Virus record (IMG/VR): IMGVR_UViG_3300031993_000032
DNA length: 41,569 nucleotides
From: a virus
Taxonomy: Duplodnaviria; Heunggongvirae; Uroviricota; Caudoviricetes
Strand: one strand, 5' to 3'
Shown here: positions 19,602 through 41,569 of the stretch, one piece after another
Numbering within the stretch: position 1 is the stretch's first letter
Layout: every line of letters begins with the position of its first letter
Position numbers and translations under genes: made by a program
The notes under the pieces: model-generated
Told to the model about the DNA's origin: nothing
Seen by the model: the letters and a program-made list of their open reading frames with translations, nothing else
Databases searched by the model: none

Positions 19602-19961
19602 AATGAACTCCTTTTGTTAAGAATTTAGCGGCCACGCAGATATGGCGCTGCGTGACCGCCCGTGCTGGTGTTTCCAGCAATTTTGCTCGCCTTACTGATG
19701 CCGTCGAGAGGCAATCCCGTAACCTTTCGGTTCAGTCTACGGCTGATCATCGGTAGGCGTCGGAACCACTTTCTGGAATGCGTGGAACAAGTCTAGCGCC
19801 ACGTCGACATCTTCTTCGCCAAGCAGATTCAAGTCGATTGCGTCGAGCTGATCCTTGAAGTCTTTAAACATAATACAATAAATATAGCAAAACACTGACA
19901 AATATGCACATAATGTACTAATTTAAACGACAGAAAAATTAATCGCTATATAAACTTATGT

Positions 19962-20058
19962 ATATACGAGTTCGTGGTGGTTCTTGTATATTGGAATGAG
20001 TTTTTGAGTGCCAGTTGGATGCTAACCACCACAATAAGCGTCCGACTGGCACTTCTAG
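19962..20058 (+). other. Two-hairpin structure with complementary loops upstream of tnpB
   Basis: Stem 19962-19970/19983-19991 with loop GTGGTGGTT; stem 20006-20023/20037-20054 with loop AACCACCAC. Confidence 0.6.
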
Positions 20059-20069
20059 TTGGTTGTCAG

Positions 20070-21398
20070 ATGATACGAGCCACAAAACATACGCTGAAAT
20101 TCGCCAATACCGGCAAGCGTTCGTCTATCGACACACTGCTTGCTGAATGGCGACGCGTCATGCAGTTGATGTGTGATGACATGTGGCTAAATGGATACCG
20201 ATGGAAAGAGGAAGACGGCTGGCACGAGTTCAAGCCAACCCAATTTAAGTACGAATTGCCGAAATATCTTGATTACAATAGGTTCAATATAGATACGTGG
20301 CTTTCTGCAAGGATGCTTAGTTCTCTTGTTACACAGCTCAGTGGCAAGCTACGCGCAATATGTAGCAAGAATGCTGCCAGATTGTATGTATTCGACAAGG
20401 AAGCCGGAAAAGGAAACTACCTTGAACGCCTATGGGAAACAATCGAAACACGGAATCCGTCAAAGCCGGATTTATCAGATGCCGCTATTGAGATATCGAG
20501 CAAGTGCGCCGAGTTCATCCATACGCCAGATGGCGAGTTCTATGGCTTTCTCCGCATCAAGTCGACTGGATTGCCTATTTTCCATGTACCAATATGCCGG
20601 CAAAAGCATTTATCCAAGTATATGGACGGTACATGGACTAGATGTAACGGTTACCTTATAGACGAATACGGAATCCAGCTCCGCTGGGAGAAGGAATTTG
20701 TCGAGAAAGAGATAGGTAACAAGGTAGGCGCTGACCAAGGATTATTGACTTGCGTATCACTATCTGATGGACAGACTACACCAGATATGGTCGTCAGCGC
20801 ACCTAGAAGTGGCGAACCAGATAGGACTATAACGGTTAATTTAGACACTATAACGGACAAACTGGCTCGTAAGAAGAAAGGCTCCAAGTCATTCGAGCGA
20901 ACTCAGACTGAACGAAGGAATTACATCAACTATGCGGTTAAACGGTTAGATTTTAGCAACATCAAGGAAATCGGCCTTGAGAAAATAACGAATATCAACT
21001 ATGGACGGAATACGTCCAGAAAGATGAAACATTGGTCCAACCCGGAGATAGTCACCAGGTTGACGCAAGTCGCAGAGGAGTTCGGTGTCCGAATCAATCT
21101 GCAATCGAACGCCTACCGATCTCAACGCTGCTCCGGATGTGGACACGTACTCAAGAAGGCGAGGAAGGGAAAGCTATATGTCTGCCCGCTATGCGGGCTT
21201 ACGATGGATGCCGATCTCAATGCGGCCAAAAACCACGCAATAGAGCTACCCGCTATACCTCACTCAACTGAGTTCTCCAAACTGGCAAAGACCGAAGGCT
21301 TCTTCTGGTTGTCTAACGGTTTGTTCAGAATGGATGGTTCGGAGTTAAGAGTCCCGAATACGTCAAAAAGTCAATCGGTATATTTGGTTATATTTTGA
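20070..21398 (+). CDS. tnpB: RNA-guided endonuclease TnpB
   Basis: RuvC-I GADQG, RuvC-II IGLEK, zinc finger RCSGCG...CPLCG, RuvC-III DADLNAAKN; start set to MIRATKH. Confidence 0.9.
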   Translation: MIRATKHTLKFANTGKRSSIDTLLAEWRRVMQLMCDDMWLNGYRWKEEDGWHEFKPTQFKYELPKYLDYNRFNIDTWLSARMLSSLVTQLSGKLRAICSKNAARLYVFDKEAGKGNYLERLWETIETRNPSKPDLSDAAIEISSKCAEFIHTPDGEFYGFLRIKSTGLPIFHVPICRQKHLSKYMDGTWTRCNGYLIDEYGIQLRWEKEFVEKEIGNKVGADQGLLTCVSLSDGQTTPDMVVSAPRSGEPDRTITVNLDTITDKLARKKKGSKSFERTQTERRNYINYAVKRLDFSNIKEIGLEKITNINYGRNTSRKMKHWSNPEIVTRLTQVAEEFGVRINLQSNAYRSQRCSGCGHVLKKARKGKLYVCPLCGLTMDADLNAAKNHAIELPAIPHSTEFSKLAKTEGFFWLSNGLFRMDGSELRVPNTSKSQSVYLVIF

Positions 21399-21437
21399 CT
21401 AACTCTTCGATATTCTCGATAGCCATAATGAAGCACC

Positions 21438-21677
21438 TTATATGGACGGTGTAGTGAATCCAGCTTCGTGTTCGTAGCGGCGCATCAAAGAAAGAAGATT
21501 CTTGGACGCATGGCCAGGGTCACGAGAAGATCCCGGGACGGTCACCCATACGGCGAGGTTGCTTGCCATTACGAGCTTCATGTGCTTGCGACCATTCTTT
21601 TCTATCCAACGGCCACCCTTGATGGCAGCCTTTACCAGGTCGGACATAGTCTTGTCTATTTTTCGTGGTCCACAACG
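21438..21677 (-). CDS. HicA-like dsRBD-fold small protein
   Basis: GRWIEKNGRKHMKL...VTVPGSSRD resembles the HicA GSH-x-K...TVP pattern; AAAGGA RBS. Confidence 0.45.
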   Translation of the reverse strand, partial: RCGPRKIDKTMSDLVKAAIKGGRWIEKNGRKHMKLVMASNLAVWVTVPGSSRDPGHASKNLLSLMRRYEHEAGFTTPSI

Positions 21678-21705
21678 CATTTGATTTTTCCTTTTTGTTA
21701 AGTTG

Positions 21706-21948
21706 TTAGTCTTTCTGTTCGAAGGTAATTTGGGCATCCACATCACCCTTCATGGTCATCGTCCCAGTAAGGTTAGCCTTCATATTGGTAATTGCATACA
21801 AAATGAGCCAACCGACCATAAGTATTGTGCCGTTAGCGACATAGAGTAAGCCGAGAACAAAGTCGTTGTTTACAAAAACCTCATATGCACCGGCTGCATC
21901 GCATGCTATACCGCCAATCGACATCACGATTTTGTAGAATTTCATCAT
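21706..21948 (-). CDS. Small membrane protein
   Basis: GGAGG RBS before MMKFYKIV; two hydrophobic segments. Confidence 0.7.
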   Translation of the reverse strand: MMKFYKIVMSIGGIACDAAGAYEVFVNNDFVLGLLYVANGTILMVGWLILYAITNMKANLTGTMTMKGDVDAQITFEQKD

Positions 21949-21958
21949 CGGTAACCTC

Positions 21959-22255
21959 CTAGTAATCGTACCTTGAATCGTAGAAGGCATCCATTTCCCA
22001 TGTCATGCGACAGTAGCAAGTGTAGATGTCCTCGAACTGTTCGCCTTCGCTCATTTCACGGAACTGTTCACTGTCCTCCAGACGATTCTTGATCAGTTCG
22101 TAGACACCGTCTGGTACGGTGAATGGCTCGATCTTGGTGACAGCCAAGGATTCCTTGGCTTCGATAGTAGCGGCTTCTTCCTGGGAGTCTACCCAAGTGA
22201 CTTTAGGCAGATATGCTGGATTCGGATGAGTCGAGGTTACTTTATACTTTATCAT
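21959..22255 (-). CDS. Hypothetical protein
   Basis: AAAGGA RBS before MIKYKV; first gene after element 22304. Confidence 0.75.
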   Translation of the reverse strand: MIKYKVTSTHPNPAYLPKVTWVDSQEEAATIEAKESLAVTKIEPFTVPDGVYELIKNRLEDSEQFREMSEGEQFEDIYTCYCRMTWEMDAFYDSRYDY

Positions 22256-22328
22256 TGATAATCCTTTTGTTGAAGGGGACGCCAAATGCATACGAGACTA
22301 GGGCAGTCCCGTATGCATTCGATTCAGT

Positions 22329-24005
22329 CTAGGCTACGTTGTTCAAGTAGGTCAGCGAAGCGTTGATCGGACTGGTGCGGTTATATGCGGCTTGGATATC
22401 ATCCATACTGAAGCCGAAGCCGTACACGCTAGAAGTCTTCAAGCGGAGCAGAGTTTCCATGGCATCATGTTCCACATTGTCCAAGAACGTCTGCGAGTGT
22501 GCCGCACTCGTATCGTTGACAATGTGAGCGATGGAGCTACGGAACGCATCTACTTCCTTGTAGTACGCTGCCATACGAGCAATCAGCACACCCAGGTTAA
22601 ACTTGTTGCCTTCCACGTTACGAACCCATACCTTGCGGTTGATATCGACAAGGCAACGGAGCCAGTAGGGGACGACACCAAGTTGACGATGACGGCATTC
22701 GCTCATGGTCTCAATCAGCCAACTAGGTACGTTCAGCGAATTGGTAGTAGTACCATTCACGTAATCGTGGAAAATACTGATTGAGTTGATGGTGCAAGAG
22801 AACACAACGCGAGTGAACAGACGGATTTCATCGTCATTGATGTACACGCCATGCAGACGCTCGTCGGCATCGTTGTTGCTGAGAATCATGTCGCCGTTGC
22901 CGAGCAAGCGTTCGGCACCGCCATGTCCGAGAATGGTCACGGAGTCGGTAGCCGAGCTGACCTTGAACGCAATGCGGCACGGAAGGTTGGCCTTGAGATC
23001 GCCAGTCACCACCTTCACAGAAGGTCTCTGCGTGGCAAGCACCAAGTGGATGCCGACTGCACGGCTCTTCTGTGCGAGTCTCTGCACTATGGAAGTGAGT
23101 TCTGCACCAGCAGTCATCATCAAGTCGGCGAATTCGTCAACCACGCAGACTACGTAGCGCATCTTTTCAACGCAGTCCACACCGATCGGCTGAGTATTCA
23201 CCCATTCGTTGTAGGACTTGATGTTACGATGGCCGTACTTGGTGAGAATAGCATAGCGGCGTTCCATTTCGGTGACGAGCCAACGGAGACCATCGAGTGA
23301 TTCGTTAGGGTCAACGAGGATCTTGCCGTTGATGCAGTTCGGCATCTTCTGGTAATCGTTCAGTTCCACGCCCTTGGGGTCAACGAGCATCAATTCAAAG
23401 TCATTCAAGGACACGTTGCGGAGCAACGAGCAGAGAAGGGAGTTGATGCAGACGGACTTTCCAGAGCCGGTCTGACCAGCAATCAGAAGGTGCGGTGCCT
23501 TCGCCAAGTCGATGGCACGTGCTTCGCCATTGACGGTAACACCGAGTTCAAGCGGAAGCGCCATACCTTCGGTATTGGCCGTATGCACATTACCGAGACG
23601 GACGACCTTGCGTTCCTTTGCGGGAATATCCAAGGCGAGAACACCCTTTTCGGATACGGAAGTGAAGGATGCGCACTTGACCTGGAGCTGCATAGCGATA
23701 TCGTCAGCAAGAGCTTCAATAGTCTTGATGCGGACACCATGCGGCAACTTCAAGTTGACACGAGTAACCACGGGACCGCATTCGATGCTATGCACTTGAA
23801 CGCCAGTCACGCCGAAACTAGAGATAGCGCTAATCACACGGTCACCGAGATCTTCGTCGGCAGAGCCAGAGAGATCGGTGGTCACGTTGAAATAGGTGCT
23901 GTTCTTTATAAATCCGATATTGCTAGTGTCAATGCCATAGAAGGCCACCGAATGGGTGGCGGTCATGTCAAGACCAAAGCCGTTTTCGAAAGTTTCGTTA
24001 GTCAT
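22329..24005 (-). CDS. FtsK/SpoIIIE-family DNA translocase motor lacking TM and gamma domains
   Basis: Alpha domain (GPVVTR...GVRIKTI), Walker A AGQTGSGKS, LVDPK, Walker B VVDEFADLM, ATQRPS, GAERLLGNGDM; GGAGG RBS before MTNETF. Confidence 0.9.
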   Translation of the reverse strand: MTNETFENGFGLDMTATHSVAFYGIDTSNIGFIKNSTYFNVTTDLSGSADEDLGDRVISAISSFGVTGVQVHSIECGPVVTRVNLKLPHGVRIKTIEALADDIAMQLQVKCASFTSVSEKGVLALDIPAKERKVVRLGNVHTANTEGMALPLELGVTVNGEARAIDLAKAPHLLIAGQTGSGKSVCINSLLCSLLRNVSLNDFELMLVDPKGVELNDYQKMPNCINGKILVDPNESLDGLRWLVTEMERRYAILTKYGHRNIKSYNEWVNTQPIGVDCVEKMRYVVCVVDEFADLMMTAGAELTSIVQRLAQKSRAVGIHLVLATQRPSVKVVTGDLKANLPCRIAFKVSSATDSVTILGHGGAERLLGNGDMILSNNDADERLHGVYINDDEIRLFTRVVFSCTINSISIFHDYVNGTTTNSLNVPSWLIETMSECRHRQLGVVPYWLRCLVDINRKVWVRNVEGNKFNLGVLIARMAAYYKEVDAFRSSIAHIVNDTSAAHSQTFLDNVEHDAMETLLRLKTSSVYGFGFSMDDIQAAYNRTSPINASLTYLNNVA

Positions 24006-24025
24006 GTTCAAATCCTCCAAGAGTT

Positions 24026-24054
24026 AATATAACTCTTATTTTTGAATTTGTCAA
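24026..24054 (-). promoter_or_regulatory. sigma70-type promoter for the FtsK-like gene
   Basis: TTGACA-N17-TATATT. Confidence 0.75.
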
Positions 24055-24106
24055 GTGGTTTGCGCAAATTTTATAGAAAAATATCGCAGCCCCGTGCAGA
24101 ATCGCA

Positions 24107-24661
24107 TCAGTCTCCGAAGGTGATGACCTGGTTCTTCTTGTCCTTGCGCATGTTGATTCTGCGGTAGCGGATCTGTTCTTGAACCTTGGGGAACAAGTCG
24201 AAGTCGCCCTCGAACGTCTGCGTGAGCAATTCTTCTGGGTAGTACAGCTTGAAATTGTCAACAGAATCAAAGTACACGCCACGGAAGAAGTTCAGTCCGT
24301 CGTAGGCGGCTAGGATGTCCGGACAGTTCTGTTGATTGTACACTGAGAACATGAAGTCCTTGCCGACTGTATAATCGTAGTAGCAGTCCAGACCCTTCTT
24401 GGACCTGGCGATGCGTACCAGATGGTACACGTTCACAGCCGGACACGTGCCGTCCTTGTACGGCTCGGAGAAGATGCTCCCCACGTAGGGGCACGTAACC
24501 TTTCCGTCCACAATCACTGGCATGGTAGTGTAGCGGTCGCCGGTATTCCAGTTGCCGGAGCGCATGTAGATGCGTACTTCCTTGCGGTCAATGACATTGT
24601 CGAACGCGACCGCCATGGCGGACACGGCGAACACGAGCATGATTATTAACAGGTTCTTCAT
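24107..24661 (-). CDS. Secreted hypothetical protein
   Basis: Signal peptide MKNLLIIMLVFAVSAMA; AAGGAG RBS. Confidence 0.8.
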   Translation of the reverse strand: MKNLLIIMLVFAVSAMAVAFDNVIDRKEVRIYMRSGNWNTGDRYTTMPVIVDGKVTCPYVGSIFSEPYKDGTCPAVNVYHLVRIARSKKGLDCYYDYTVGKDFMFSVYNQQNCPDILAAYDGLNFFRGVYFDSVDNFKLYYPEELLTQTFEGDFDLFPKVQEQIRYRRINMRKDKKNQVITFGD

Positions 24662-24720
24662 AGTAATTCTCCTTTGTGGATGCTATCAAAATGGTCCGCG
24701 AGGGCAGTCCCGCAGACCAT

Positions 24721-24864
24721 TCAGCCAGTCTTGCCGAATCTGATTCGGTCTCTCTCAAGTCGTTCCTTGGTGATCTTCCGGAACAACAGTACGGCATGTT
24801 CCTGTACAGTCAGTCCAGACCATCCGACATCAAGTCCTTTCTTGTAGACTTCGTTGTAGTTCAT
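24721..24864 (-). CDS. 47-aa hypothetical protein
   Basis: ATGA overlap start MNYNEVYKK; last codons lie inside the repeat element. Confidence 0.6.
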   Translation of the reverse strand: MNYNEVYKKGLDVGWSGLTVQEHAVLLFRKITKERLERDRIRFGKTG

Positions 24865-25067
24865 CGGCGTTTCGGGAATTCGCTGTCCAGACCATGCGCC
24901 CACGTACCGTCTATGACGGATAGACCGACCTTCACGCCAAGATGAATCTGGCTAATCTTGTCACGGTCAACCGGACGGCCTTGGACGTATTCGTCAGCAA
25001 GTTCCCTCATCTGGTCAGCGGCCTTGTACAGCATGACCCTTACATCATGTTTCGTATAAATAGCCAT
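24861..25067 (-). CDS. Hypothetical protein
   Basis: AAGGAG RBS. Confidence 0.75.
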   Translation of the reverse strand: MAIYTKHDVRVMLYKAADQMRELADEYVQGRPVDRDKISQIHLGVKVGLSVIDGTWAHGLDSEFPKRR

Positions 25068-25261
25068 AAAAACTCCTTAGTTGAATCTGCGGTGTGCATT
25101 TTGAATGAAACGAAGGGGCAGTCCCGTGCTAGACGGAACCAGTCCCTGCGTATATCTTGTCTTCGGTAGGACAGAACACTTCTTCGCTGTTGCAATCCCC
25201 ACGTAGGTGGGTTGTATATTTTTTTGGTGTCCGTCTTAACTTGGGTAGTAGTCGATGATTT

Positions 25262-25696: not shown

Positions 25697-25720
25697 ATGT
25701 GTCTCCTTGCAAAGTATTGA

Positions 25721-26416
25721 TTATAATTCCACGTTATATACGTCACCAGTGTCGTTAGCTACGACACGAGCGAAATTCGGGAGAAATCCGTCTCCGTTAC
25801 GGAAATCAGTGATCGAACGCATGACACGTGCGGCCTCGAACATCACGCATGCTCCGTAATTGTCCATTATATCACGTACATGATTAATCCTGTACTCCAC
25901 GGTGGATGCCAAGACCTTTCCATTGCTGTCCATCTTATGGAAGCTCACAACGAAGTTGTCGTTGCTTACCAGATGGAATAAGTGTTCCAAAACTTCACTG
26001 AACCGGACAACCAGTCCAGACCATCCACCCAGGCTGACATCACCGTTATTATGGGGAACCTCAATCTTCACCGGAATATGGTAGTTGGTGAACGTGAAGT
26101 ACAGTTCCTTGTCACGGCTACAGTGCGAGAACTGAACGTCCGTGTCATCGCCAACGAACTCGTCGGACATCGACTTAGCGAGGGCCTCGGCCTTCTTCGC
26201 CACGGTCTTCTTGAGCCATCCATATCCGCTGCTCGTCTCGTAGCAGCTATTGGACATGTAGATGGTCACTCGACCGATCCTACGGTTCACTGAATAGGCC
26301 ATACGGCCAGTACCTACATCTGCATGGTACTTCTTGTAAAAATCGGACTCTAAAACCAGCTTCTCAAGCCGAGCTATTAGTTTTTCCTCTGTCGGCGTAA
26401 TCGTCTCATAATTCAC
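25721..26416 (-). CDS. Hypothetical protein
   Basis: AAAGGAG RBS before GTG at 26416. Confidence 0.75.
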   Translation of the reverse strand: MNYETITPTEEKLIARLEKLVLESDFYKKYHADVGTGRMAYSVNRRIGRVTIYMSNSCYETSSGYGWLKKTVAKKAEALAKSMSDEFVGDDTDVQFSHCSRDKELYFTFTNYHIPVKIEVPHNNGDVSLGGWSGLVVRFSEVLEHLFHLVSNDNFVVSFHKMDSNGKVLASTVEYRINHVRDIMDNYGACVMFEAARVMRSITDFRNGDGFLPNFARVVANDTGDVYNVEL

Positions 26417-26487
26417 GGTAAATCTCCTTTGTATGTGCAATTTTCATATAATGACGAGGCAGTCCCGTACACGGGACCGCCAGTCCG

Positions 26488-26655: not shown

Positions 26656-26680
26656 AATGAGTCTCCTTTTGTTTGACTAG

Positions 26681-27205: not shown

Positions 27206-27226
27206 GATTAAAACTCCTTTTTAATA

Positions 27227-28103: not shown

Positions 28104-28205
28104 GTCGATTCTCCTTGTTTTGGTTGTGGTTGATATAAAATGGTAGGGCAGTCCCGCCGTCGGCGGAACCAGTCCTTTGTTGATATACTGTGAATAACTT
28201 GTTGA

Positions 28206-29158: not shown

Positions 29159-29235
29159 GATTGAACTCCTTTTGATTAGGTTGTGCCCCTTGTATAAGGG
29201 AATAAGGCAGTCCCGTGGACGGGACCGCCAGTCCG

Positions 29236-29994: not shown

Positions 29995-30063
29995 GGTTAA
30001 TCTCCTTTTGGTTGTGTCCTTGGTATAAGCAGACAAGGCAGTCCCGCAGACGGATCCGCCAGT

Positions 30064-30267
30064 CTACTTGTCGAGATCCTTCGCTATTCCGAAATAGATG
30101 ATGAACGACGGCACTAAGATCTGCACAAGAATCAGCACAATGCCGACAAAGACATCGAATGCGACCTTCTTGTCCAGAGTGTCCATGTACGGAATGAGGA
30201 TGAAAAAGCTGATGGCTAGGCATGCGGAAGCCGCCGCCAGAGATACGAATTTCTTGACAACCTTCAT
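30064..30267 (-). CDS. Small two-TM membrane protein
   Basis: AAGGAG RBS; two hydrophobic helices. Confidence 0.75.
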   Translation of the reverse strand: MKVVKKFVSLAAASACLAISFFILIPYMDTLDKKVAFDVFVGIVLILVQILVPSFIIYFGIAKDLDK

Positions 30268-31462: not shown

Positions 31463-31832
31463 AGTGGTCTCCTTTGCTAGTAGTTTCTGTAACCTTCTCG
31501 CAATCCTCGATATCGTCCAACGGCAGTCCCGTGGGATGCTCGTCAGTCGGATACAGTTCAGCCGTGTGGCTTGCAAGCCAGTCGAGGAACGCCCTCATGA
31601 GGTTGACCTCCTCGGCTGTATAGGCCAGGAACGTGTCCGACATGTTCGGCGTGATGAACGAGAAAAATTTCTTTCCGTCTGGCGTGAAGTAGATGAAAAC
31701 GTCCACCTTGGTGGATCCGTCCCTACTTTCCACGAAGAAGGCTCGGCAAAGGGTGCCCTCTGGGTAAGTTTCCCCATAAGGACCTCTGTCAGCCCTCGCC
31801 AACGGGGTTTTCATCTCGAACTGCATCTTCAT
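31443..31832 (-). CDS. Hypothetical protein containing a repeat element inside its 3' coding region
   Basis: TAATG coupling; element 31524-31548 within the frame. Confidence 0.7.
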   Translation of the reverse strand: MKMQFEMKTPLARADRGPYGETYPEGTLCRAFFVESRDGSTKVDVFIYFTPDGKKFFSFITPNMSDTFLAYTAEEVNLMRAFLDWLASHTAELYPTDEHPTGLPLDDIEDCEKVTETTSKGDHYAELGE

Positions 31833-32403: not shown

Positions 32404-32468
32404 CAGAAAAATTAAAATTTTCTGTTATATCTTGAATAAAAAGTGGGCGCAGTCCCGCCGATCACGGA

Positions 32469-33110
32469 TCAGTGGTACACGGCCTTCTTGAACATTTCCT
32501 CGGTCATGCGGTCAAGCAACGCACCGCAAGCCTCCACCCTACCGAAGCACGTGCCGTCGTACTTCTTGCGGAGTTCCTTGCCGTCAGCACCGATACCTAT
32601 ATTGCCGTTCTTCAGCTTGTAGGCGATTTCCTTCTCGCTGATGTCTCGGAATGCGCCTACGAGGTGGCTGTCGTCGTCGGCTTCCCCATACCCAAGGAAA
32701 TAGACGAACACGGACGAGCTGCCCTCGACTGGCTTCTGTCCCACCCAGTAGTGTACATGCTCGTGCATGTAGTCCCCGAACTCCATGTCGGCATACTTCT
32801 TCATGATGGCTCGGACGGCCTCAACGTACTCGCCGTACCGCAAGAGCCATACGGACTTGATGTCTATGCTGACGCCCGCATACGGCATCCACATGTGGAC
32901 TGCGTTGCCTTCCTTCTTCGAGACGGTAAACTCGAATCCGGACACGTTGTACTGCGAAGCCTTCGTCTCGTGGCAACGGAACCTATATTCGAGCTTGCTG
33001 TTATCGTAGCCCAAAGCCAACTGTCCAATCAGCTCACGGATCTTTTCTGCCCCGTGCCTCAAGTAAAGCCTGTCTGGGCTGTAGCCCTTCCTTCCATGTA
33101 CGTGTGCCAT
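32469..33110 (-). CDS. Hypothetical protein
   Basis: AAAGGAG RBS before MAHVHG; stop overlaps the element ACTG. Confidence 0.8.
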   Translation of the reverse strand: MAHVHGRKGYSPDRLYLRHGAEKIRELIGQLALGYDNSKLEYRFRCHETKASQYNVSGFEFTVSKKEGNAVHMWMPYAGVSIDIKSVWLLRYGEYVEAVRAIMKKYADMEFGDYMHEHVHYWVGQKPVEGSSSVFVYFLGYGEADDDSHLVGAFRDISEKEIAYKLKNGNIGIGADGKELRKKYDGTCFGRVEACGALLDRMTEEMFKKAVYH

Positions 33111-33165
33111 ATTATCTCCTTTGGGTTGTGCATTCCCCATAAAGGGGCTAGGCAGTCCCGCAGAA

Positions 33166-33633
33166 CTAGCCGCCAGTCTTCCCCAAGAGTCCGTCAATCA
33201 GCCGCAAGTTGTCCTCTGCGCTCGACAGACAGTCGAAGTCGTGCGGCAATGCGTACAGAATCTGGCCGTCCTCGGCATTCTCCTCGGCATATCCGCATGA
33301 GTCGCTACGCATCCCACTCACCACCGAATCCGTAACGCCTTCGGCAATGTCACGGATGGCACCGCCAGAAGGCGACCATCCCTTCGGAACCCACGAGAGG
33401 TTCACGTATTCACGCTTCTCGCACTTCCAGTAGCGAAGTACAGCCCTTTCCGTCTCCGTCTTCACCTTCTTGAAGATTCTGTACGTGCCGTCATGCAGTC
33501 GGACGATGTAGTAGGCCCTTATCTTGAAATCGTCCGGTATGGCCACGCCGTCCACCAGGAAGGTGTACTCCACGCCGCAAGTCACCATGTTCGTGCAATG
33601 TCTCGGATCGCTCCTCATAAGAAATTCTCCCAT
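33166..33633 (-). CDS. Hypothetical protein
   Basis: Typical codons; ends GKTGG inside the element; start 33633 or 33618. Confidence 0.75.
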   Translation of the reverse strand: MGEFLMRSDPRHCTNMVTCGVEYTFLVDGVAIPDDFKIRAYYIVRLHDGTYRIFKKVKTETERAVLRYWKCEKREYVNLSWVPKGWSPSGGAIRDIAEGVTDSVVSGMRSDSCGYAEENAEDGQILYALPHDFDCLSSAEDNLRLIDGLLGKTGG

Positions 33634-33797: not shown

Positions 33798-33895
33798 GTA
33801 GTAGACCGGACCCGACTCCTTGGTTAAAGGTTGTTAGTGTTTCCGTACCCATACATATACGCTAGGTGCAGTCCCGCCCACAGTACAATCAGTCC

Positions 33896-34261: not shown

Positions 34262-34299
34262 AGTTTCAATTACTCCTTTGGAATGTTTTTACCCCATAT

Positions 34300-34914
34300 A
34301 TGCACAGCGGACAGTCCCGCACATAGGTCGGCCAGTCCCAGACTGTCCCCACAGTCCCCAACGGTCGCCCAACGTGGCAAAACGTGGGAAATAGTGGGAC
34401 ATTGTGGATATGTTGACAAAATGTTGATAGAGTGTGATTATAGTGGGAATAGGTATAAAAAATTTTTCCTTGTGTCGTACCTTGGGAACGAGTCGGAACG
34501 CAGACAGAACTGGTAGGCCGTTTGGGGCCTGGCTTGTTCTGAAAATTCCGGACTGGGGGGAAAGGGGCGGTTTCTGTATTAAATAGGCGCACAACGATCG
34601 GTCTGGGGTCTCGCGTGTGTGCCCTTTTCTTTCCCCTTCGGAATCCATGTGGCGAGATGTGCGGTGAAGTTAGCCCAGAGTAAGAAAGTTAGCGAATTTT
34701 GAAACATTCCCTAGATATTGTTTGAAGTGGAGACAAAATCCCAACATAGTGGAAAAGTGTCGAAAATGTTGATAAGGTGTTGATAAGTGTTAATTTTAGT
34801 TTACATAATCAAGGTTATCTCGCCGTGCTCAAATGAGCATTATAAAATGTATGGAAATTATAATAAAAATAAACTATATTTACATATAGAAATAAACCGA
34901 AAACGAGGAATGCT
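34300..34914. other. Non-coding strand-switch region with DnaA-box-like/iteron-like repeats (candidate origin or terminus)
   Basis: TGTTGATAA 34767 and 34778; TGTGGATAT 34403, TGTTGACAA 34411, TGTTGATAG 34422; repeated GTGG(G/A)A; AT-rich end. Confidence 0.4.
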
Positions 34915-35655
34915 ATGTCAACAATAGATTACTATACCGATGATGCCGAACGTACTTATCTAATAAGCCACGTATACCAGACTCCATACTTCGCCCCTGG
35001 TGAATTATCCAAGATTGAAAACTATGCCCAAGCGTTGGCAAATAATTTCGTTGGTTGGGTCATTCACCACAGATTAGAACTGAACCCAGATGGTAGCGTT
35101 AACAAACGTCGTGATGAATTAATACTATCAAACCAGTATTACTATCGTCCGGCAAATGAATTGATCTTTTTAACCAGTATCGAACATGGCAAACTACATG
35201 GGCACTCTATAAAGCCGAACCCCACTATAGTGTCACACGAAACGAGGAATAAACAGAGTAACGCCAAGTTGGTCGCCAATAACACCGAGGAACGTTACCG
35301 AGTAGTTTCTGCGTTGGTGGAGTCTGGCGAACTGTTATGCATGTCTGACTATCAGTTCTACCGTCGGTATTGCCAACGTAACGGCATAGCGTTTACTGGG
35401 GCAAAGGTTGACAAGAGTCATACGGTTAGTCGAGTCGATGTGCCGAAGGTGAATGTAACTAAAAATAAACAAAGTCGAACTGAACGTACTGAAGCTCGAT
35501 ATAAAGATGTCATGGAACGCTTAAATAATGGTGATGTTCTACCGATGAAGGAATTTTCGTTTCTCCGTCGGTATTGTGATAGGCGTCTCATAGACGTTCC
35601 GTCGATCATTATCGTAGACGACGGATTCAAATTAAAAAATATATCTGGCGTGTGA
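34915..35655 (+). CDS. HNH endonuclease with duplicated C-terminal module
   Basis: WVIHHRLE...YYRPANELIFLTSIEHGKLH; repeats TEERY...YQFYRRYC and TEARY...FSFLRRYC; lone plus-strand gene in the array. Confidence 0.7.
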   Translation: MSTIDYYTDDAERTYLISHVYQTPYFAPGELSKIENYAQALANNFVGWVIHHRLELNPDGSVNKRRDELILSNQYYYRPANELIFLTSIEHGKLHGHSIKPNPTIVSHETRNKQSNAKLVANNTEERYRVVSALVESGELLCMSDYQFYRRYCQRNGIAFTGAKVDKSHTVSRVDVPKVNVTKNKQSRTERTEARYKDVMERLNNGDVLPMKEFSFLRRYCDRRLIDVPSIIIVDDGFKLKNISGV

Positions 35656-35718
35656 TCCCATTATTTGGGAAATTTCCGGTCCCGTCGGAAACGTGCCAGT
35701 CAGTCGGCGCTGGAGGCC

Positions 35719-35751
35719 AAAAAAAGCCCCAGGTCCCGAAGGATCTGGAGC
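35719..35751 (-). terminator. Intrinsic terminator (cUUCGg loop)
   Basis: GCTCCAGATCC-TTCG-GGACCTGGGGC-TTTTTTT. Confidence 0.8.
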
Positions 35752-35814
35752 TTTTCCAACCAAGGAGAAAAAAGACTATATAACTGGAGTATGTTCTAAA
35801 CCGATCAACCGCCC

Positions 35815-36345
35815 TTAAAACAATTTATGTAGCTTGAGTTCGTTTTCCGCGATTTGGTCATGGATTTTATTGATTTTGTCCAAGTACTGCTGTTCTCTGT
35901 AGTTAGCAATGACTTTATGGATGAACCCTCTAGGGTCATCCAGGTCGGCCATGGCGCTATCTTTTGTGGACGCTTCCTCGAAGAGGACAGTATCACCTTC
36001 GTCAGCCAGAATCCGGCACATGAGAGCCGGGTTAGGGTCATTCTTGTCAGTATCGACGAATAGTCTTAGGTTTATGATAAGGTCCGGAAGATTAGCGATC
36101 CCTACTATATCGGATTCGAAAATTAATTCGGAGACATTATCGGACACGAACGGAGCGATAGGCGTAGGTCCATCCCCTAGGGCGAGTTTGAGTTCAGTAC
36201 CGAATCTATCCCCATAGGGACACTGTTGGTGCAGTCTGGCAATGAAAAGATCATTATCCAGCGGTTTACCGTTATCCTCTGGGAGTTGTCTGGAATTGAT
36301 CCAAGGGATAACGAGGTTATCTATAAAGGATTTGAGTCTGGACAT
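35815..36345 (-). CDS. Hypothetical protein
   Basis: AAGGAG RBS. Confidence 0.75.
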   Translation of the reverse strand: MSRLKSFIDNLVIPWINSRQLPEDNGKPLDNDLFIARLHQQCPYGDRFGTELKLALGDGPTPIAPFVSDNVSELIFESDIVGIANLPDLIINLRLFVDTDKNDPNPALMCRILADEGDTVLFEEASTKDSAMADLDDPRGFIHKVIANYREQQYLDKINKIHDQIAENELKLHKLF

Positions 36346-36350
36346 GATAC

Positions 36351-36722
36351 TTACTCCTTACTGATAAGGTTGTCGAGGATATGTTTTTGCGCTAGGATAA
36401 CGAGTTTAGACGGGTTATCGGAAGCTATGACCCACAGTCCGTTATCATTGATTCTGGTAATGGTTCCGTTTACGGATCTCATGATATTGATTTTGGTCAC
36501 GTTATCGGCCATCAGGAACGATATTGTATATGAGAACATGACGTTATTCTGGTCATAAACATAACCGAGAATGACGATATCACCGTTTTTGCTTGATTCG
36601 ACCTTAGGAGAACTGAACGACATGTTATCGAACGCTGGGGAGAGATAAGTTTTTACTTGGTTCAAGACCATCTGGTTATAATCGTTGACCTTTTTCATGA
36701 AACGGATTTCGTTTTTATTCAT
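36351..36722 (-). CDS. Hypothetical protein, paralog of 28206-28577
   Basis: EIRF...YLSPAF..MSFSSP...GDIVILG...RSVNGTITRI...LWVI. Confidence 0.8.
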   Translation of the reverse strand: MNKNEIRFMKKVNDYNQMVLNQVKTYLSPAFDNMSFSSPKVESSKNGDIVILGYVYDQNNVMFSYTISFLMADNVTKINIMRSVNGTITRINDNGLWVIASDNPSKLVILAQKHILDNLISKE

Positions 36723-36807
36723 ATAAGCCTCTGGTTGTTAAGTCTTTGTAGGTTATAAGGGACCGAGTCAGTCCCGTTGGAAATGAGTCATTATGGAACT
36801 GTGGCAC

Positions 36808-36840
36808 AAAAAGGCCCCAGTACCCGAAGGTACTGGAGCT
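36808..36840 (-). terminator. Intrinsic terminator (cUUCGg loop), related to 35719-35751
   Basis: GCTCCAGTACC-TTCG-GGTACTGGGGC-CTTTTT. Confidence 0.8.
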
Positions 36841-36863
36841 TTCCAACCACGGAGCATGAAAAC

Positions 36864-37193: not shown

Positions 37194-37217
37194 GTAAAAG
37201 CTCCTTATGGTAACAGT

Positions 37218-37424
37218 TTATGGGGTTACTCCACTGGTTCCAGTGACTTTTGTGTCTACGGAAACGGCACGGTTTGCCAGATCCGGATATTGGCCTTTGA
37301 ATGTATCGAGAGCCAGGGTTCTGGCCATAGACTTTGCCAAGTCGATCGACGGAGCTTCGACATTATTGATATGTACATTTACTTTGACGGTGATTTCGAC
37401 GAGAGTGGATAATACTTTAGCCAT
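37218..37424 (-). CDS. Hypothetical protein
   Basis: CAACCAAGGAG leader. Confidence 0.75.
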   Translation of the reverse strand: MAKVLSTLVEITVKVNVHINNVEAPSIDLAKSMARTLALDTFKGQYPDLANRAVSVDTKVTGTSGVTP

Positions 37425-37514
37425 GATGGATCTCCTTGGTTGTGTGTGCCCTTAGTATAGGTGATGCATGCAGTCCCGTGGGGAACGTGCCAGTCCCTGG
37501 TCGGCGGAGGCCAG

Positions 37515-37547
37515 AAAAAAGCCGAGACGGAGATCATCCGTCCCGGC
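37515..37547 (-). terminator. Intrinsic terminator
   Basis: GCCGGGACGG-N7-CCGTCTCGGC-TTTTTT. Confidence 0.8.
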
Positions 37548-37557
37548 CAACCAGGGA

Positions 37558-38006
37558 GCTACAGAAAAGTGTAAGATCTTCTCGTGACTGACTCGTCTGG
37601 GCGAGCCGTCTCCCAGTCACTCGATACTCGGCGTTGGACATCTATCGCCACATCGCTACCGAGCATGAAGATTTTTTTTCGTGGTCTGACCAAGTCGAAC
37701 ACGAACCGTTATCTGAAACCTACCTAAATCTACCAAGAGATAGACCTATGTGATTTCCTACCTTGCTCGTTGCCGAGTAGGCCGTAACGGCACTTAATCA
37801 ACCATATCTACGCGATATTCCTAATATGCATCAAGCAATATGGCTGACTTGCCTAGTCCTACTCCATTGATGGAGAGCCTTAACACGGTCGGCATATCAA
37901 ACTAGACATGAGTAAATATAGTTCAATCGTTATCTATTTTCAATAGCAGATTTAAGTATATTTAGTTAAATTTTGTTAACATTTGTGACTGCAGTCGGTT
38001 ACCCAT
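37558..38006 (-). pseudogene. Promoter-to-terminator unit with no intact ORF (decayed gene or ncRNA)
   Basis: RBS plus 14-aa ORF MGNRLQSQMLTKFN (37962-38006); distal protein-like frames joined by a frameshift at an A8 run (37672-37679) end at TAG next to the terminator module. Confidence 0.4.
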
Positions 38007-38078
38007 GATTAAATCTCCTTGATTGGTTGTGCCGAATGAATAAGCTGGCGAGGCAGTCCCGCCAGCTGGCGGACAGTC

Positions 38079-38633
38079 CTACAGTTCCGTCTCGATAGTC
38101 CACTTCGTCCAGACGGGCCAGGTGTTCGGCGACTCCGCGCACTTGGTCTGGAGCAGCATTTTCGCCGTGGGGAACATGATACCGTCAGACTCTTCCTTGT
38201 ATGCCTCGGCGAGCCTCTTGAAGTCGTCGATGACAAACTGGATCGCCTCGCCGACGGTGGCGCAAATCTTGACAAAGGAACGGAGATCGCCGTTCTGGTT
38301 GTCATACTGTGCGCCGTGGACAGCAACGAAGTTGCATTCGTGTTCCCAGACGGAGCAGTCGATGTAGTCGCCGCCAGTGGTTTCAAAGGACACGCTTTCG
38401 GTCGTCTCTCTGATGGCAGCCAGCAGTGCTTCGGTGTCGTCCAGATCGCCCTCGAACATCTTGCCGTCGAAGTAGACGTTTTCCAGACGGCTTCTGAAGT
38501 ACTCGTCTTCCTCGATCTTCTTACGTGCCCAAGCGTGAAGCTCGTTGATGGCTTCCTTCTCGACTGGATACATATCGACGGATTCGGCGGTTCTGTCGTC
38601 CTGATGGAAAATAATCAAGCTAAACTGTTTCAT
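38079..38633 (-). CDS. Acidic hypothetical protein
   Basis: Follows element 38689; stop abuts element 38054. Confidence 0.8.
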   Translation of the reverse strand: MKQFSLIIFHQDDRTAESVDMYPVEKEAINELHAWARKKIEEDEYFRSRLENVYFDGKMFEGDLDDTEALLAAIRETTESVSFETTGGDYIDCSVWEHECNFVAVHGAQYDNQNGDLRSFVKICATVGEAIQFVIDDFKRLAEAYKEESDGIMFPTAKMLLQTKCAESPNTWPVWTKWTIETEL

Positions 38634-38714
38634 TTCTGATCTTCTTGATTGGTTTGGTTGGTTGTGTAGAATGAATAAGACGGCGGAGCAGTCCCGCCGT
38701 CCGGCGGCCAGTTC

Positions 38715-39074
38715 CTAGAGCTTCTCGATCTTGTCTGAAACGGTCATCAGCGCCTTGTAGTCTGTGCCGCCGTCGAGATCGGCGATATCGTTGATGTACT
38801 TGCTGAAGAAGTATTTCAGCCAATCGGCTTCACGCTGGGTGAGCTTAAGGGTCTTTGTCTTGAGTTGGTCTGCCTTATCCAGCTCGATAAAATTCTCGTC
38901 GAAGAACTTTCGGCTCACTTTAGTTGCGTCTAGGTACATTCCGGATATAAGCACTTTTTCCGGGTCATTAAATACCCAGAGACAGGTATATCGGTTGCCC
39001 TTCTTAATCTTGACACCGCCCAGACCTTTGGTATGGGTAGCGACGTAAATTCTAGATACTACAGGTATTGGCAT
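38715..39074 (-). CDS. Hypothetical protein
   Basis: CAACCAAGGAG leader before MPIPVV. Confidence 0.8.
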   Translation of the reverse strand: MPIPVVSRIYVATHTKGLGGVKIKKGNRYTCLWVFNDPEKVLISGMYLDATKVSRKFFDENFIELDKADQLKTKTLKLTQREADWLKYFFSKYINDIADLDGGTDYKALMTVSDKIEKL

Positions 39075-39168
39075 GGTTGATCTCCTTGGTTGAGGTTTGT
39101 ATGGAATAAATATTATCTGAAAGCAGTCCCGTCGGTTCTTTACCAGTAGCCAGGTGCGGCTGGCAAAT

Positions 39169-39197
39169 AAAAACTGGGCGGAATTGCTTCCGCCCAG
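39169..39197 (-). terminator. Intrinsic terminator (GCAA tetraloop)
   Basis: CTGGGCGGAA-GCAA-TTCCGCCCAG-TTTTT, perfect 10-bp stem. Confidence 0.85.
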
Positions 39198-39222
39198 CAA
39201 CCAGGGAGTTAAAAATTATTTT

Positions 39223-40014
39223 TTAGTGGTCATGGCAAGCGATAACCTTGACCTTGCTGTCAATGCATAGTCTGCAGTTCTCGCAGTGCGACTTGGGATC
39301 GGGGTTGAGCTTGGCTTTGCCAGTTTTACCGACTACCAGGTAGGCAGGGCAGTAGCACTTGGTAGGCAAGCACATATCCACGCCGTCATCGAAGACGAAT
39401 GCCTTGACGTTCGGCAAGTGAGAATATTTTTTGTAGGCTTCGACGCCCACGTCGTGCCAGACCGAGAACAAGATCGTGAAGTTGGGCGGCACGTCGCCGT
39501 TTTCGAGGAATTTTCCCACGATATCGTACATTTTCGTGTACAGATAGAACTTGGTATCAGGGAAACGGATCGCAAGGCGGCACCACATGGCCATTTGGCG
39601 TTCGTTTTCGAGTTCGCCAGACTGGTTGATACGGGCGATCTTGACGTGGCGGCGTTCGATCTGGTTGGCCAGATCGGCTTCGACCTTCTTGAGTTCGTGA
39701 CGGAGACCCCAGGTGTTGATTGCCTGGGACTGGACGACTCCAGGGAAGCGGTAGGAAGCTCTGACGTAGCAGCTCTTCTTACAGGCGCTGCAGTTCTTGC
39801 AAGTGCCCTTGATACCTTCGAGTTCGTCGTTGAGACCTTCGTAGGTGTAGTCGCCGAGCAGCGTAGACCACGTGGCGATACGGCCTACCTTGATGTTGCC
39901 AGCGAGACTGAAGCCGTAGGTGTGAGCCTTGGGATCGAAGGTATAGCGTTCGATTCCGTTGGGCGTGACCGTCTTGGTGTCTTCGTGGAACAGTTTCTTA
40001 GATTCTTTAGCCAT
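39223..40014 (-). CDS. Gp88-like protein (radical-SAM-related Cys cluster)
   Basis: GNIKVG, GTCKNCSACKKSCY, RINQSGE, FYLYTK, terminal CENCRLC motifs. Confidence 0.7.
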   Translation of the reverse strand: MAKESKKLFHEDTKTVTPNGIERYTFDPKAHTYGFSLAGNIKVGRIATWSTLLGDYTYEGLNDELEGIKGTCKNCSACKKSCYVRASYRFPGVVQSQAINTWGLRHELKKVEADLANQIERRHVKIARINQSGELENERQMAMWCRLAIRFPDTKFYLYTKMYDIVGKFLENGDVPPNFTILFSVWHDVGVEAYKKYSHLPNVKAFVFDDGVDMCLPTKCYCPAYLVVGKTGKAKLNPDPKSHCENCRLCIDSKVKVIACHDH

Positions 40015-40100
40015 AATGTAGCTCCTTAGGTTGAATTGGCTTTGTGCTTAAATTATATCAGAAAGGGGCAGTCCCGGAGAACTGCCGCCAGTTTCCAGAA

Positions 40101-40646
40101 CTACTGAACCTTCATGCCAAGCTGTTTAGCAGCGGCAATCAAGCATCGCTTTTGCAATTCAGCATTGAATGTATTAAAGGCGGCCTTGATTTCCTTGACT
40201 GTATGTACTTCGACCTCATCTTTAACTTCGACATCATCAAAGTCGCTGGACACGTACAGTATACAGAGTTCGCATTTGGTCTCGCCAGAATCATGTCTGG
40301 TCAGACGAATTGTGAAATCATACCGGTTATATTCAGCGCTCAATTCGAGCTTGGTGTCATACAGCCCATGGAAAACTCGCTTCGTCAGATTATTGACGCA
40401 ATCGGCATACTCTTCAAACACCAGTAGATTCAATTGATCCACGCATGACTCGACAAAATTCAAGTCACGATCGGTATTGAACACGTCCGGCAATCTATAC
40501 GGTTCATCGAAATCCAGATCGCTTGGATTGATTTCAGACATCTTGTCCAGGAGTACCTGGAGGATCGGGTCGAACGGTTTGGCTACCGGCTTGACGGCGG
40601 CCTTCTTGGTAGTCTTCTTGGTGGATTTCTTGATAGTTGTTTTCAT
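40101..40646 (-). CDS. Hypothetical protein with Lys/Thr-rich basic N-terminus
   Basis: CAACCAAGGAG leader; MKTTIKKSTKKTTKKAAVKP. Confidence 0.8.
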   Translation of the reverse strand: MKTTIKKSTKKTTKKAAVKPVAKPFDPILQVLLDKMSEINPSDLDFDEPYRLPDVFNTDRDLNFVESCVDQLNLLVFEEYADCVNNLTKRVFHGLYDTKLELSAEYNRYDFTIRLTRHDSGETKCELCILYVSSDFDDVEVKDEVEVHTVKEIKAAFNTFNAELQKRCLIAAAKQLGMKVQ

Positions 40647-40722
40647 AAAAACTCCTTGGTTGATTGTATAGGGGAAATAACCCGGCTAGGCAGTCCCGCA
40701 GGGCTGCCGCCAGTTTCCAGAA

Positions 40723-41205
40723 CTACTGATAGAGACAGCTGTTTCTGTCAATGAGGGTCACCAGGTGTTCTCTGGAGAGAGGCTTCGTGAAGCTCATGAC
40801 TTCTGTGGCATTGAGTCCCTCGGAGTCGTCAACCGACAGCTTGCTGGGGATAGCCGTCAGCTCGTAGTCACCAGTGGTGTCAATCGCCAGCTTGTAGCCA
40901 GTCTCCTTGAGGGCGGCGAACAGCGGCTCGGCAGCCTTCTGGAGCTTCTCAATCACACTGCCATAGTTGACGCCGAGCAGTGCCTCTGCACGAGAGGTGA
41001 ACGGGCCGTTCACCTCGGACACGACCCAGTCGTCAGTGCGTACGGACGGACACAGCTTGTGTGCGTACTCAATTGCCAAGTTGTTGAACTCCTCAGAATG
41101 CGTGTCGTAGTCGGTCTCCACGCCTACCCAGATCTCAGGGCTAGCGACCTGTCCTGAAGGAACAACCTTGCTGGAACACAAAACAAAATACTTGGACTTT
41201 TTCAT
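40723..41205 (-). CDS. Hypothetical protein
   Basis: AACCAAGGAG leader. Confidence 0.8.
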   Translation of the reverse strand: MKKSKYFVLCSSKVVPSGQVASPEIWVGVETDYDTHSEEFNNLAIEYAHKLCPSVRTDDWVVSEVNGPFTSRAEALLGVNYGSVIEKLQKAAEPLFAALKETGYKLAIDTTGDYELTAIPSKLSVDDSEGLNATEVMSFTKPLSREHLVTLIDRNSCLYQ

Positions 41206-41287
41206 GATTAACTCCTTGGTTTGGGTGTATAGGGAAAATAACCCGGCAGGGCAGTCCCGCCGGGTATCGGCCAGTTCCTAGACTGTA

Positions 41288-41506
41288 TTAATCGCACTCC
41301 TTGACAAGTTCCTTGAGTTTCTTGCCAGCGGCTGCCATTCCGTCTTCGTCGTCTTCGGCGACGGCGTCGTCATAATCATTGAGCGCAGCCCTCACCTTCT
41401 GACGGAATTCTTTGTCCTTGGTAGCCTTGGCGTCGAGCTTCCAAGCATCGCCGTAATCAATTTCCCCAGTAAGCTGGGCTACGTCTTCGAGTCTGGATTC
41501 AAACAT
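41288..41506 (-). CDS. Small acidic hypothetical protein
   Basis: CAACCAAGGAG leader. Confidence 0.8.
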   Translation of the reverse strand: MFESRLEDVAQLTGEIDYGDAWKLDAKATKDKEFRQKVRAALNDYDDAVAEDDEDGMAAAGKKLKELVKECD

Positions 41507-41569
41507 TGTTAATCTCCTTGGTTGATTGTGTGTAACGGAAATAACCCGGTAGAGCAGTCCCGTGACTGG

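Follow-up and report, generated by a model that had tools for sequence, protein, structure and literature searches.

The viral DNA stretch IMGVR_UViG_3300031993_000032 (Caudoviricetes; 41,569 nucleotides, called the window throughout) carries on its minus strand a short bipartite element, which is repeated 23 times in a single direction along an array of orphan genes. We argue that each copy is probably a control cassette of ~85 bp, which makes the gene downstream of it a transcription unit of its own, dependent on a phage factor and terminated by a hairpin. The element itself is most likely a phage-specific promoter that is often fused to the hairpin of a terminator, as suggested by its anatomy and by its conservation in related phages. 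In the mechanism which we favour, the core RNA polymerase (RNAP) of the host would start at a purine 12 nt past the T of a conserved TAT, and this would require a specificity factor encoded by the phage, which recognises the core of the element, and perhaps also its upstream box, in place of the −35 contact. This factor would preferably be one of the phage's own sigma factors of the sigma-70 family or, as a second option, a DNA-binding activator which works with the host sigma in a geometry comparable to that of T4 MotA. A GC-rich hairpin at or just upstream of the core, ending before the T-rich −10, would stop the transcription coming from the previous gene. The near-identical cassettes would, in addition, be sites at which homologous exchange takes place, and this would account for the differences in gene order and gene content that the array shows from one related phage to another.

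The 8-mer CGGGACTG, which marks the core of the element, was found 21 times without mismatch in the window, on the minus strand only, between 22304 and 41562, as against a mean of 0.97 and a maximum of 4 in dinucleotide-preserving shuffles of the window. A search allowing mismatches added two copies with one mismatch each and with the same flanks, CGGGGCTGCG at 24094 and CGGGATTGCC at 19719 (copies are named here by their first core base), and brought the total to 23 copies between 19719 and 41562. The motif scan gave no copy on the plus strand or in positions 1-19600 of the window, and TTGACA was present at −35 in none of the window copies. Exactly 10 nt past CGGGACTGC all 23 copies read NAT, which is TAT in 20 and CAT in three of them (19 and two, respectively, when only the 21 exact cores are counted). 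A full TATAAT was noticed in a single copy, 40076, and the sixth base of the TAT hexamer was T in just four of the 23, unlike the −10 of sigma-A. The distance from the upstream A(C/A)TG to the ACTG of the core was 20 bp in 10 and 21 bp in 12 of the 22 copies which could be assessed; the upstream box is ACTG in 21 of these, with AATG in the remaining copy, 36776, and the two spacings are regionally clustered, such that adjacent copies are alike.

Downstream of TAT the copies are equally regular. At +12 from its T a purine was observed in 20 of 22 window copies and T in none, and this predicted start is directly preceded by C or T and directly followed by CA. An A/C-rich leader follows, and in most copies AAGGAG and a start codon were found 50-63 nt past the core, so that each copy precedes an open reading frame (ORF); the stop codon of the previous gene falls within the start of the cassette in about half of the copies. 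When numbered from the predicted start, the core CGGGRCTGCC extends from about −31 to −22, the upstream GACTG(G) from about −48 to −43 and TAT from −12 to −10, with nine variable bases between the core 10-mer and TAT, while the upstream box ends ~30 bp before TAT. The boxes have an information content of ~2 bits per position and the intervening spacers of ~0 bits, which argues that the boxes are maintained by selection and not by mere descent.

An earlier reading of the window, made from its letters alone (the original prediction), had described 23 copies facing one way, TAT or CAT at a fixed distance from the exact cores, one TATAAT copy, an upstream ACTG at 20 or 21 bp in nearly all assessable exact copies, and CACA or TACA ~8 nt past TAT in most copies, followed by the A/C-rich leader and AAGGAG. 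The counts given above and the alignment of the copies bear this description out, as the upstream distance holds in all 22 assessable copies (with AATG in 36776), and so does the reported absence of the element from the plus-strand operons and of TTGACA from −35.

Furthermore, the element is not confined to the window. IMG/VR was scanned with proteins and with the motif as guide, and both scans pointed to the viral contig IMGVR_UViG_3300037512_000782 (348,092 bp, 91% complete), designated G001, with whose 262-320 kb region the window is syntenic in reverse orientation. Proteins of the plus-strand operons are 77-94% identical between the two, those of the array far less and less evenly so. In G001, CGGGACTG occurs in 41 forward copies and the variant core CGGGGCTGCC in ~31, altogether 72 copies on one strand and in a single block of 65 kb (232-297 kb), with spacing identical to that of the window. 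NAT stands at the same offset in all 72, which together with the window makes AT invariant in 95 of 95 copies, and the base at +12 is a purine in 68 of the 72 and never T. It may be noted that the ~31 cassettes in which CGGGGCTGCC replaces CGGGACTGCC lie mostly in the upstream half of the G001 array, at 232-265 kb; such clustering suggests either local homogenisation or the presence of two sub-classes. The ~22 kb which had been assigned to the array does contain the 23 copies, but the edge of the window is not the end of the array, the syntenic block of G001 being 65 kb long.

More relatives were found via homologues of a gene adjoining the array. Contig L154 has six copies with the spacing of the element, and L157 has two copies with the core CGGGGCTGAC and the same N10-TAT. 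A strict-pattern scan of metagenomes gave one further true copy only, on the fragment L131 with N9 spacing; the other metagenome loci in which GGGACTG recurred proved to be coding sequence or simple repeats. The cassette was absent from L070 and L074, two huge-phage contigs with distant FtsK-like genes. Prokaryotes were scanned with the 18-base full bipartite pattern in one genome per species, for 185,579 bacterial and archaeal species, and 25 single matches were obtained against a rough chance estimate of ~35, with no genome having two. Single matches at chance level rule out a generic host repeat. Being conserved in related contigs and at chance level in prokaryote genomes, the element can, as far as these genomes tell, be assigned to a small clade of huge phages, and a repeat of host origin can be dismissed. 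This agrees with the phage specificity that had been proposed for it at the outset, since the same spacing recurs in the huge-phage contigs G001, L154 and L157 and none of the 25 prokaryote matches is repeated within its genome.

The same scans bear on the possibility that a host alternative sigma, or sigma-A together with a host activator, reads the element without any phage factor, and that the array is an immediate-early block. Regions of early host takeover typically hold small orphan genes with promoters of their own, as the array does; TAT and the start are arranged as for bacterial RNAP, and a host regulon having the core and TAT alone would escape the prokaryote scan, which used the full bipartite pattern. 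Nevertheless, we regard a host reader as unlikely, as no bacterial genome has even two full matches, the motif is limited to one 65-kb block in G001, and the phage has near-perfect sigma-A promoters elsewhere, some of them in tandem behind the element; also, the motif is not known to fit any Firmicutes sigma consensus.

That the element is a promoter is argued by its downstream half, as a pyrimidine-purine step at a constant 12 nt past TAT is how the −10 and the start are arranged in promoters of sigma-dependent bacterial RNAP. It is not the sole kind of promoter in these phages. We found eight near-consensus promoters of the host type TTGACA-N16/17-TATATT in the window, seven of which are TTGACA-N17-TATATT (Table 1). 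G001 has 44 host-type promoters, as against 8-15 in five shuffles, and many of these have an ATG 7-10 nt past the −10, which suggests that they may give rise to leaderless mRNAs. Cassettes 24094 and 32457 have a host-type promoter in tandem just downstream, serving the same gene. Since near-consensus host-type promoters coexist with the cassette element in the window and in G001, the latter forms a separate class. Motif discovery in the regions upstream of strong ribosome-binding sites outside the G001 array revealed no further promoter class.

We also considered known promoter types which the boxes recall. The upstream box often reads CTGGCAC in G001, as in a sigma-54 promoter, but this reading was rejected, as the required spacing and the −12 element are absent; the combination of a TGGCAC-type −24 element with GG-N10-GC was found in 0 of 22 window copies and in 10 of 72 G001 copies, the alternation of 20 and 21 bp is incompatible with such spacing, and the invariant bases are found elsewhere than at GG and GC. 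A T7-type promoter was rejected because the gap between GACT and TAT is 11 nt, the counterpart in the T7 promoter being 3 nt, and no T7-type polymerase domain was found in G001 by a Pfam search run without positive control. GGGACTG resembles the ECF-type motif GGAACTT, but nothing is conserved 16 nt downstream of it, and this reading was likewise rejected. Finally, a second TATACA, which is common in G001 9 nt past TAT and absent from most window copies, was rejected as the −10, as transcription would then start inside the ribosome-binding site.

Folding of the sequences around the copies revealed many strong hairpins, the registers of which differ. In copies 41259, 38696, 38061 and 24712 the core lies in a stem-loop of 9 or 10 bp whose 3' arm ends right before TAT, and in 29215, 26467 and partly 40076 the sequence from one box to the other repeats the core in inverted orientation. 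In 39131, 37478 and 36776 the internal hairpin is absent and a T-run terminator stands directly upstream of each. Within the 100 nt that end at TAT, the most stable hairpin had a median of −17.9 kcal/mol, compared with −11.6 kcal/mol at 60 control positions on the same strand (p = 3e-6). Pairing in the outer stem, examined over 94 copies, reached 49-57% against 38-41% in shuffles, with many pair types and with about half of the copies involved. As the core, its spacing and TAT are kept with or without a hairpin, the hairpin would not be part of the recognition signal; most likely it terminates the transcription of the gene before it, and in many copies it has been fitted into the promoter. The terminators of the hairpin-free cassettes (39173-39210, 37520-37560 and 36814-36855, minus strand) are preceded by a CTGGTTG-type sequence, which is complementary to the CAACCAAGGAG leader.

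Gene order and gene content of the array differ between the two phages, array genes being missing, replaced or reordered with respect to G001. In a nucleotide comparison with G001, 12 of 30 ends of homology blocks fell inside elements, which cover ~9% of the region, and in one case the element itself was the sole homologous segment between the two. These block ends are suggestive of recombination between cassettes, and the cassettes appear to mark the units by which this clade of phages gains, loses and reorders orphan genes. Neither this shuffling behaviour nor the hairpin and terminator component had a place in the original account of the element.

Hairpins and block ends could also mean that the signal acts mainly at the level of RNA or of recombination, as an intergenic terminator, as an exchange site or as a hairpin for processing whose loop is bound by a protein, and that the genes are transcribed from elsewhere. 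The significant enrichment of hairpins would fit such a role, as would the frequent location of the core in a loop or stem with co-varying outer arms, and homology blocks that end in elements amid a shuffled gene order. We find it improbable, because the hairpin register is inconsistent and about half of the copies lack the co-varying stem, whereas copies with a separate upstream terminator retain core, spacing and TAT. It would also leave the fixed-offset AT of 95/95 copies and the purine 12 nt on unexplained, and the host-type promoters, four in the 22 kb of the array, are too few to serve every terminated unit.

Under the promoter reading, the question is which protein reads the boxes. G001 encodes two proteins of the sigma-70 family (14688-15506 and 198197-198937), both with regions 2 and 4 and of no defined subfamily, and both genes have host-type promoters upstream; the window has no sigma-70-family gene. 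A phage sigma of this family is the leading and the simplest candidate, with an activator that works with the host sigma as the second. The original prediction of a phage activator or sigma regulon is partly supported, by the promoter geometry, by the distinctness from the host-type class and by the two sigma factors of G001. Since a sigma-70-family phage sigma is the leading candidate, the term "non-sigma70" used in that prediction is better replaced by "not host sigma-A type", the sense in which it holds. The "tandem direct-repeat operator" proposed with it is weakened by G001, where the copies with the core CGGGGCTGCC (~31) keep GACTGG as their upstream box; with the core varying and the upstream box constant, without co-variation, the two boxes are not simply two sites for one reading head.

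Another candidate was noticed next to the array. Genes 18341-18820 and 17682-18290 (minus strand) adjoin its last copy, behind the host-type promoter at 18880, and their products are distantly related to each other (22% identity, E = 3e-4). The product of 18341-18820 (159 aa) has two Myb-like repeats and a C-terminal helix-turn-helix (HTH), and 34 homologue clusters with 59-83% identity were found in metagenomes, on contigs of up to 440 kb. A search of the PDB with its AlphaFold model (mean pLDDT 77.5) gave nothing significant; sigma factors and a Myb domain headed the list, with E above 0.1. We consider the protein a candidate reader of the cassette boxes. Gene tables list a protein ~63% identical to this HTH protein in two more distant relatives from ENA, ERZ27256871 (28.6 kb) and ERZ27256846 (33.8 kb); there, type I-C-like CRISPR-Cas genes (Cas5d, Csd1, Cas7 and Cas3) lie a few kb from the HTH gene, and a Tad3-family gene is also present.

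A non-canonical RNAP encoded by the phage, missed by the profiles and possibly carried in the virion, might read the element instead, of the kind exemplified by the phiKZ/AR9-type split enzymes, YonO-type enzymes and the N4-type enzyme, which recognises hairpins. Huge phages often carry divergent polymerases, the hairpins at the core recall N4 early promoters, and Pfam searches, including the T7-type one, could miss very divergent enzymes. On the other hand, a profile search of the 91%-complete G001 found no RNAP beta or beta-prime domains, the phage encodes sigma factors, which implies use of the host core enzyme, and TAT, 12 nt and a pyrimidine-purine step are the signature of sigma-dependent bacterial RNAP. 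Moreover, the hairpins are facultative and variable in register, unlike N4 promoters, where hairpins occur in fixed register at every promoter; here a co-varying stem is found in about half of the copies. A polymerase of this kind is, in our view, very unlikely.

Several observations weigh against the interpretation that the element is a promoter read by a phage factor and fused to an exchangeable terminator cassette. Only TAT is conserved in its −10 region. The core lies ~5 bp nearer to the −10 than a canonical −35 does, and as known sigma-70-family factors have a fixed distance between their regions 2 and 4, this is too near for an ordinary region-4 contact, so that an ordinary sigma reading is not straightforward. 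The two sigma genes of G001 are far from the array and nothing ties them to the motif. Hairpin registers vary and about a quarter of the copies are without a strong hairpin, and the block ends at elements may merely reflect weaker conservation of intergenic DNA.

Among described systems the closest is the PeSL promoter-terminator cassette of T4-like phages, here with a putative promoter that is not of host type. PeSLs are repeated cassettes of a promoter and a stem-loop which precede orphan genes in the hyperplastic regions of T4-like phages (PMC2839356, Arbiol et al. 2010; PMC4122927, Comeau et al. 2014). Their promoters follow the host sigma-70 consensus, and the stem-loop does not keep one position with respect to the boxes of the promoter. 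Experiments have shown that they act as promoters and as terminators, and a role in modular shuffling has been demonstrated (PMC2839356, PMC4122927). The likeness lies in dozens of short repeated cassettes upstream of orphan genes in a plastic region (here 23 in 22 kb), in the combination of promoter, stem-loop terminator, ribosome-binding site and start codon with a stem-loop of variable position, and perhaps in the coincidence of cassettes with differences in gene content and order between related phages. In contrast to PeSLs, the element described here has no −35 hexamer, has TAT only at the −10, and has a conserved 10-mer and a second box; also, the activities of PeSLs are shown by experiment whereas this element is known from its sequence.

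With regard to recognition, the nearest parallel is provided by the middle promoters of T4, in which a MotA box near −30 replaces the −35 hexamer, sigma-70 is remodelled by AsiA, and the gap between box and −10 is 11-13 bp. Much as in T4, the −35 hexamer gives way to a conserved box near −30, which is accompanied by a −10-like element, and a phage factor would redirect the host RNAP. However, the box is ~3 bp closer to the −10 (nine variable bases versus 11-13), the T at −7 is not conserved, and a second upstream box is present. Neither a MotA C-terminal domain nor an AsiA homologue was found in G001, where PF09158 gave only an 11.9-bit match with an internal stop, which is at noise level, and PF09010 gave no match in a search without positive control. 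The T4 MotA analogy drawn in the original prediction concerns the geometry only, which is alike without being identical.

The middle and late promoters of the Bacillus phage SPO1, served by the gp28 and gp33/34 cascade, have −35 and −10 at normal spacing. Similar to SPO1, the phage lineage studied here encodes sigma-70-family factors behind host-type promoters, has promoter classes distinct from those of the host, and shares some proteins with SPO1-like and other Firmicutes phages. The element, however, has no −35/−10 pair ~17 bp apart, and with its core ending 9 bp before TAT the spacing is too short; in addition, its regulon is one contiguous block of orphan genes and not a set of replication or structural genes.

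These comparisons leave room for a new mode of promoter recognition in huge phages of Firmicutes type, which we put forward tentatively as a possibility: a phage protein may read the −31 to −22 box together with a second box two helical turns upstream, and recruit the host core RNAP to a minimal −10 consisting of TAT. Such a protein might be a sigma of unusual compactness; alternatively, it might be an activator without relation to MotA, of which the Myb-like/HTH pair adjoining the array would be one example. If this were true, it would represent an independent invention of sigma redirection, applied to a hyper-variable block of ~60-70 orphan genes, and a factor recognising a box in the spacer region would be a new way of redirecting bacterial RNAP. 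The cassette could, moreover, find use as an orthogonal part that combines promoter and terminator. What is known of huge uncultured phages is almost solely their gene content, and the timing of their gene expression is largely obscure. Here ~95 aligned examples of one regulatory signal are available across two genomes, with an exact predicted start and with the host-type class as an internal contrast, and these, together with the candidate factors, suffice to design direct tests. The coordinates of the features of the window are collected in Table 1.

Table 1. Predicted cassette promoters, terminators and host-type promoters of the window (for cassettes, the number in brackets is the first core base)
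Feature	Position	Strand	Downstream gene or remark
Cassette promoter (19719), core CGGGATTGCC, CAT	19688..19737	-	long leader to gene 19230-19601
Cassette promoter (22311)	22280..22329	-	gene 21959-22255
Cassette promoter (24094), core CGGGGCTGCG	24063..24112	-	host-type TTGACA-N17-TATATT 24054-24026 in tandem; FtsK/SpoIIIE-like gene 22329-24005
Cassette promoter (24712), CAT, hairpin merged with core	24681..24730	-	gene 24107-24661
Cassette promoter (25126), CAT	25095..25144	-	gene 24861-25067
Cassette promoter (26467), upstream arm an inverted core copy, hairpin −27 kcal/mol	26436..26485	-	gene 25721-26416
Cassette promoter (28156)	28125..28174	-	gene 27771-28103
Cassette promoter (29215), upstream inverted core copy giving a 10-bp hairpin	29184..29233	-	gene 28580-29158
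Cassette promoter (30046)	30015..30064	-	gene 29236-29994
Cassette promoter (31531)	31500..31549	-	gene 30596-31462 (DUF1281_C-like)
Cassette promoter (32457), with tandem host-type promoter 32403-32375	32426..32475	-	gene 31832-32353
Cassette promoter (33160)	33129..33178	-	gene 32469-33110
Cassette promoter (33876)	33845..33894	-	AAGGAG, GTG-started 53-codon ORF 33797-33636, then gene 33166-33633
Cassette promoter (34319)	34288..34337	-	gene 33896-34261
Cassette promoter (36776), degenerate upstream box AATG	36745..36794	-	genes 36351-36722, 35815-36345
Cassette promoter (37478)	37447..37496	-	gene 37218-37424
Cassette promoter (38061), merged 10-bp hairpin	38030..38079	-	14-codon ORF only
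Cassette promoter (38696), merged 10-bp hairpin	38665..38714	-	gene 38079-38633
Cassette promoter (39131), without internal hairpin	39100..39149	-	gene 38715-39074
Cassette promoter (40076), TATAAT	40045..40094	-	gene 39223-40014 (GP88 family)
Cassette promoter (40698)	40667..40716	-	gene 40101-40646
Cassette promoter (41259), merged 10-bp hairpin	41228..41277	-	gene 40723-41205
Cassette promoter (41562), upstream box lost at window end	41531..41569	-	gene 41288-41506
Canonical terminator, 11-bp stem and T-run	39173..39198	-	upstream of copy 39131
Canonical terminator, 12-bp stem and T-run	37520..37548	-	upstream of copy 37478
Canonical terminator, 11-bp stem and T-run	36814..36839	-	upstream of copy 36776
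Host-type promoter	2123-2151	+	TTGACA-N17-TATATT
Host-type promoter	7372-7400	+	TTGACA-N17-TATATT
Host-type promoter	13828-13856	+	TTGACA-N17-TATATT
Host-type promoter	18880-18852	-	TTGACA-N17-TATATT
Host-type promoter	24054-24026	-	TTGACA-N17-TATATT
Host-type promoter	27255-27227	-	TTGACA-N17-TATATT
Host-type promoter	32403-32375	-	TTGACA-N17-TATATT
Host-type promoter	23932-23905	-	N16, TATAAA
Weaker host-type promoter	37943-37915	-	

Few genes of the window could be assigned. Near-identity DNA searches with both halves of the window against phage and plasmid collections gave no match, and neither did Rfam and tRNA scans. Recognisable genes encode an FtsK/SpoIIIE-like ATPase, TnpB, an MFS transporter, an AAA ATPase with its best relatives in SPO1-like and other Firmicutes phages, a lytic transglycosylase and a metallophosphoesterase. 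All 20 array proteins of one scanned set were without a Pfam family, and 10 of these also without a PHROGs family; two further array proteins had matches of the domain-of-unknown-function type only. No T4-like marker gene was noticed among the scanned window proteins, and hallmark genes were not sought in G001.

Some individual loci of the array deserve mention. The FtsK/SpoIIIE-like translocase (563 aa, 70% identical in G001) is located within the orphan-gene array, and the arrangement before its gene, a variant cassette and a near-consensus host-type promoter, is kept in G001, L154 and L157. The TnpB gene (19974-21398, plus strand), with a Cas12f1-like TNB domain and a transposase PHROG, is flanked by the last two cassette copies, which are on the other strand; the syntenic site of G001 lacks such a gene, and its presence here therefore probably reflects a recent insertion. 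A stretch of low GC content was observed at 34400-35800 inside the array (GC 0.44 in 34-36 kb), where copies 34319 and 36776 follow each other with no cassette in between. An orphan ORF on the plus strand of this stretch (34915-35655) has sigma-70-like sites of its own; it is absent from G001 and looks like an inserted gene. Lastly, cassette 38061 is followed by a TTGAAA-N17-TATATT site, then by ~390 nt without a convincing ORF, and by a strong terminator at 37548-37520; this region (37520-38061, minus strand), which has no Rfam match, could be the remains of a gene unit or could specify a non-coding RNA.

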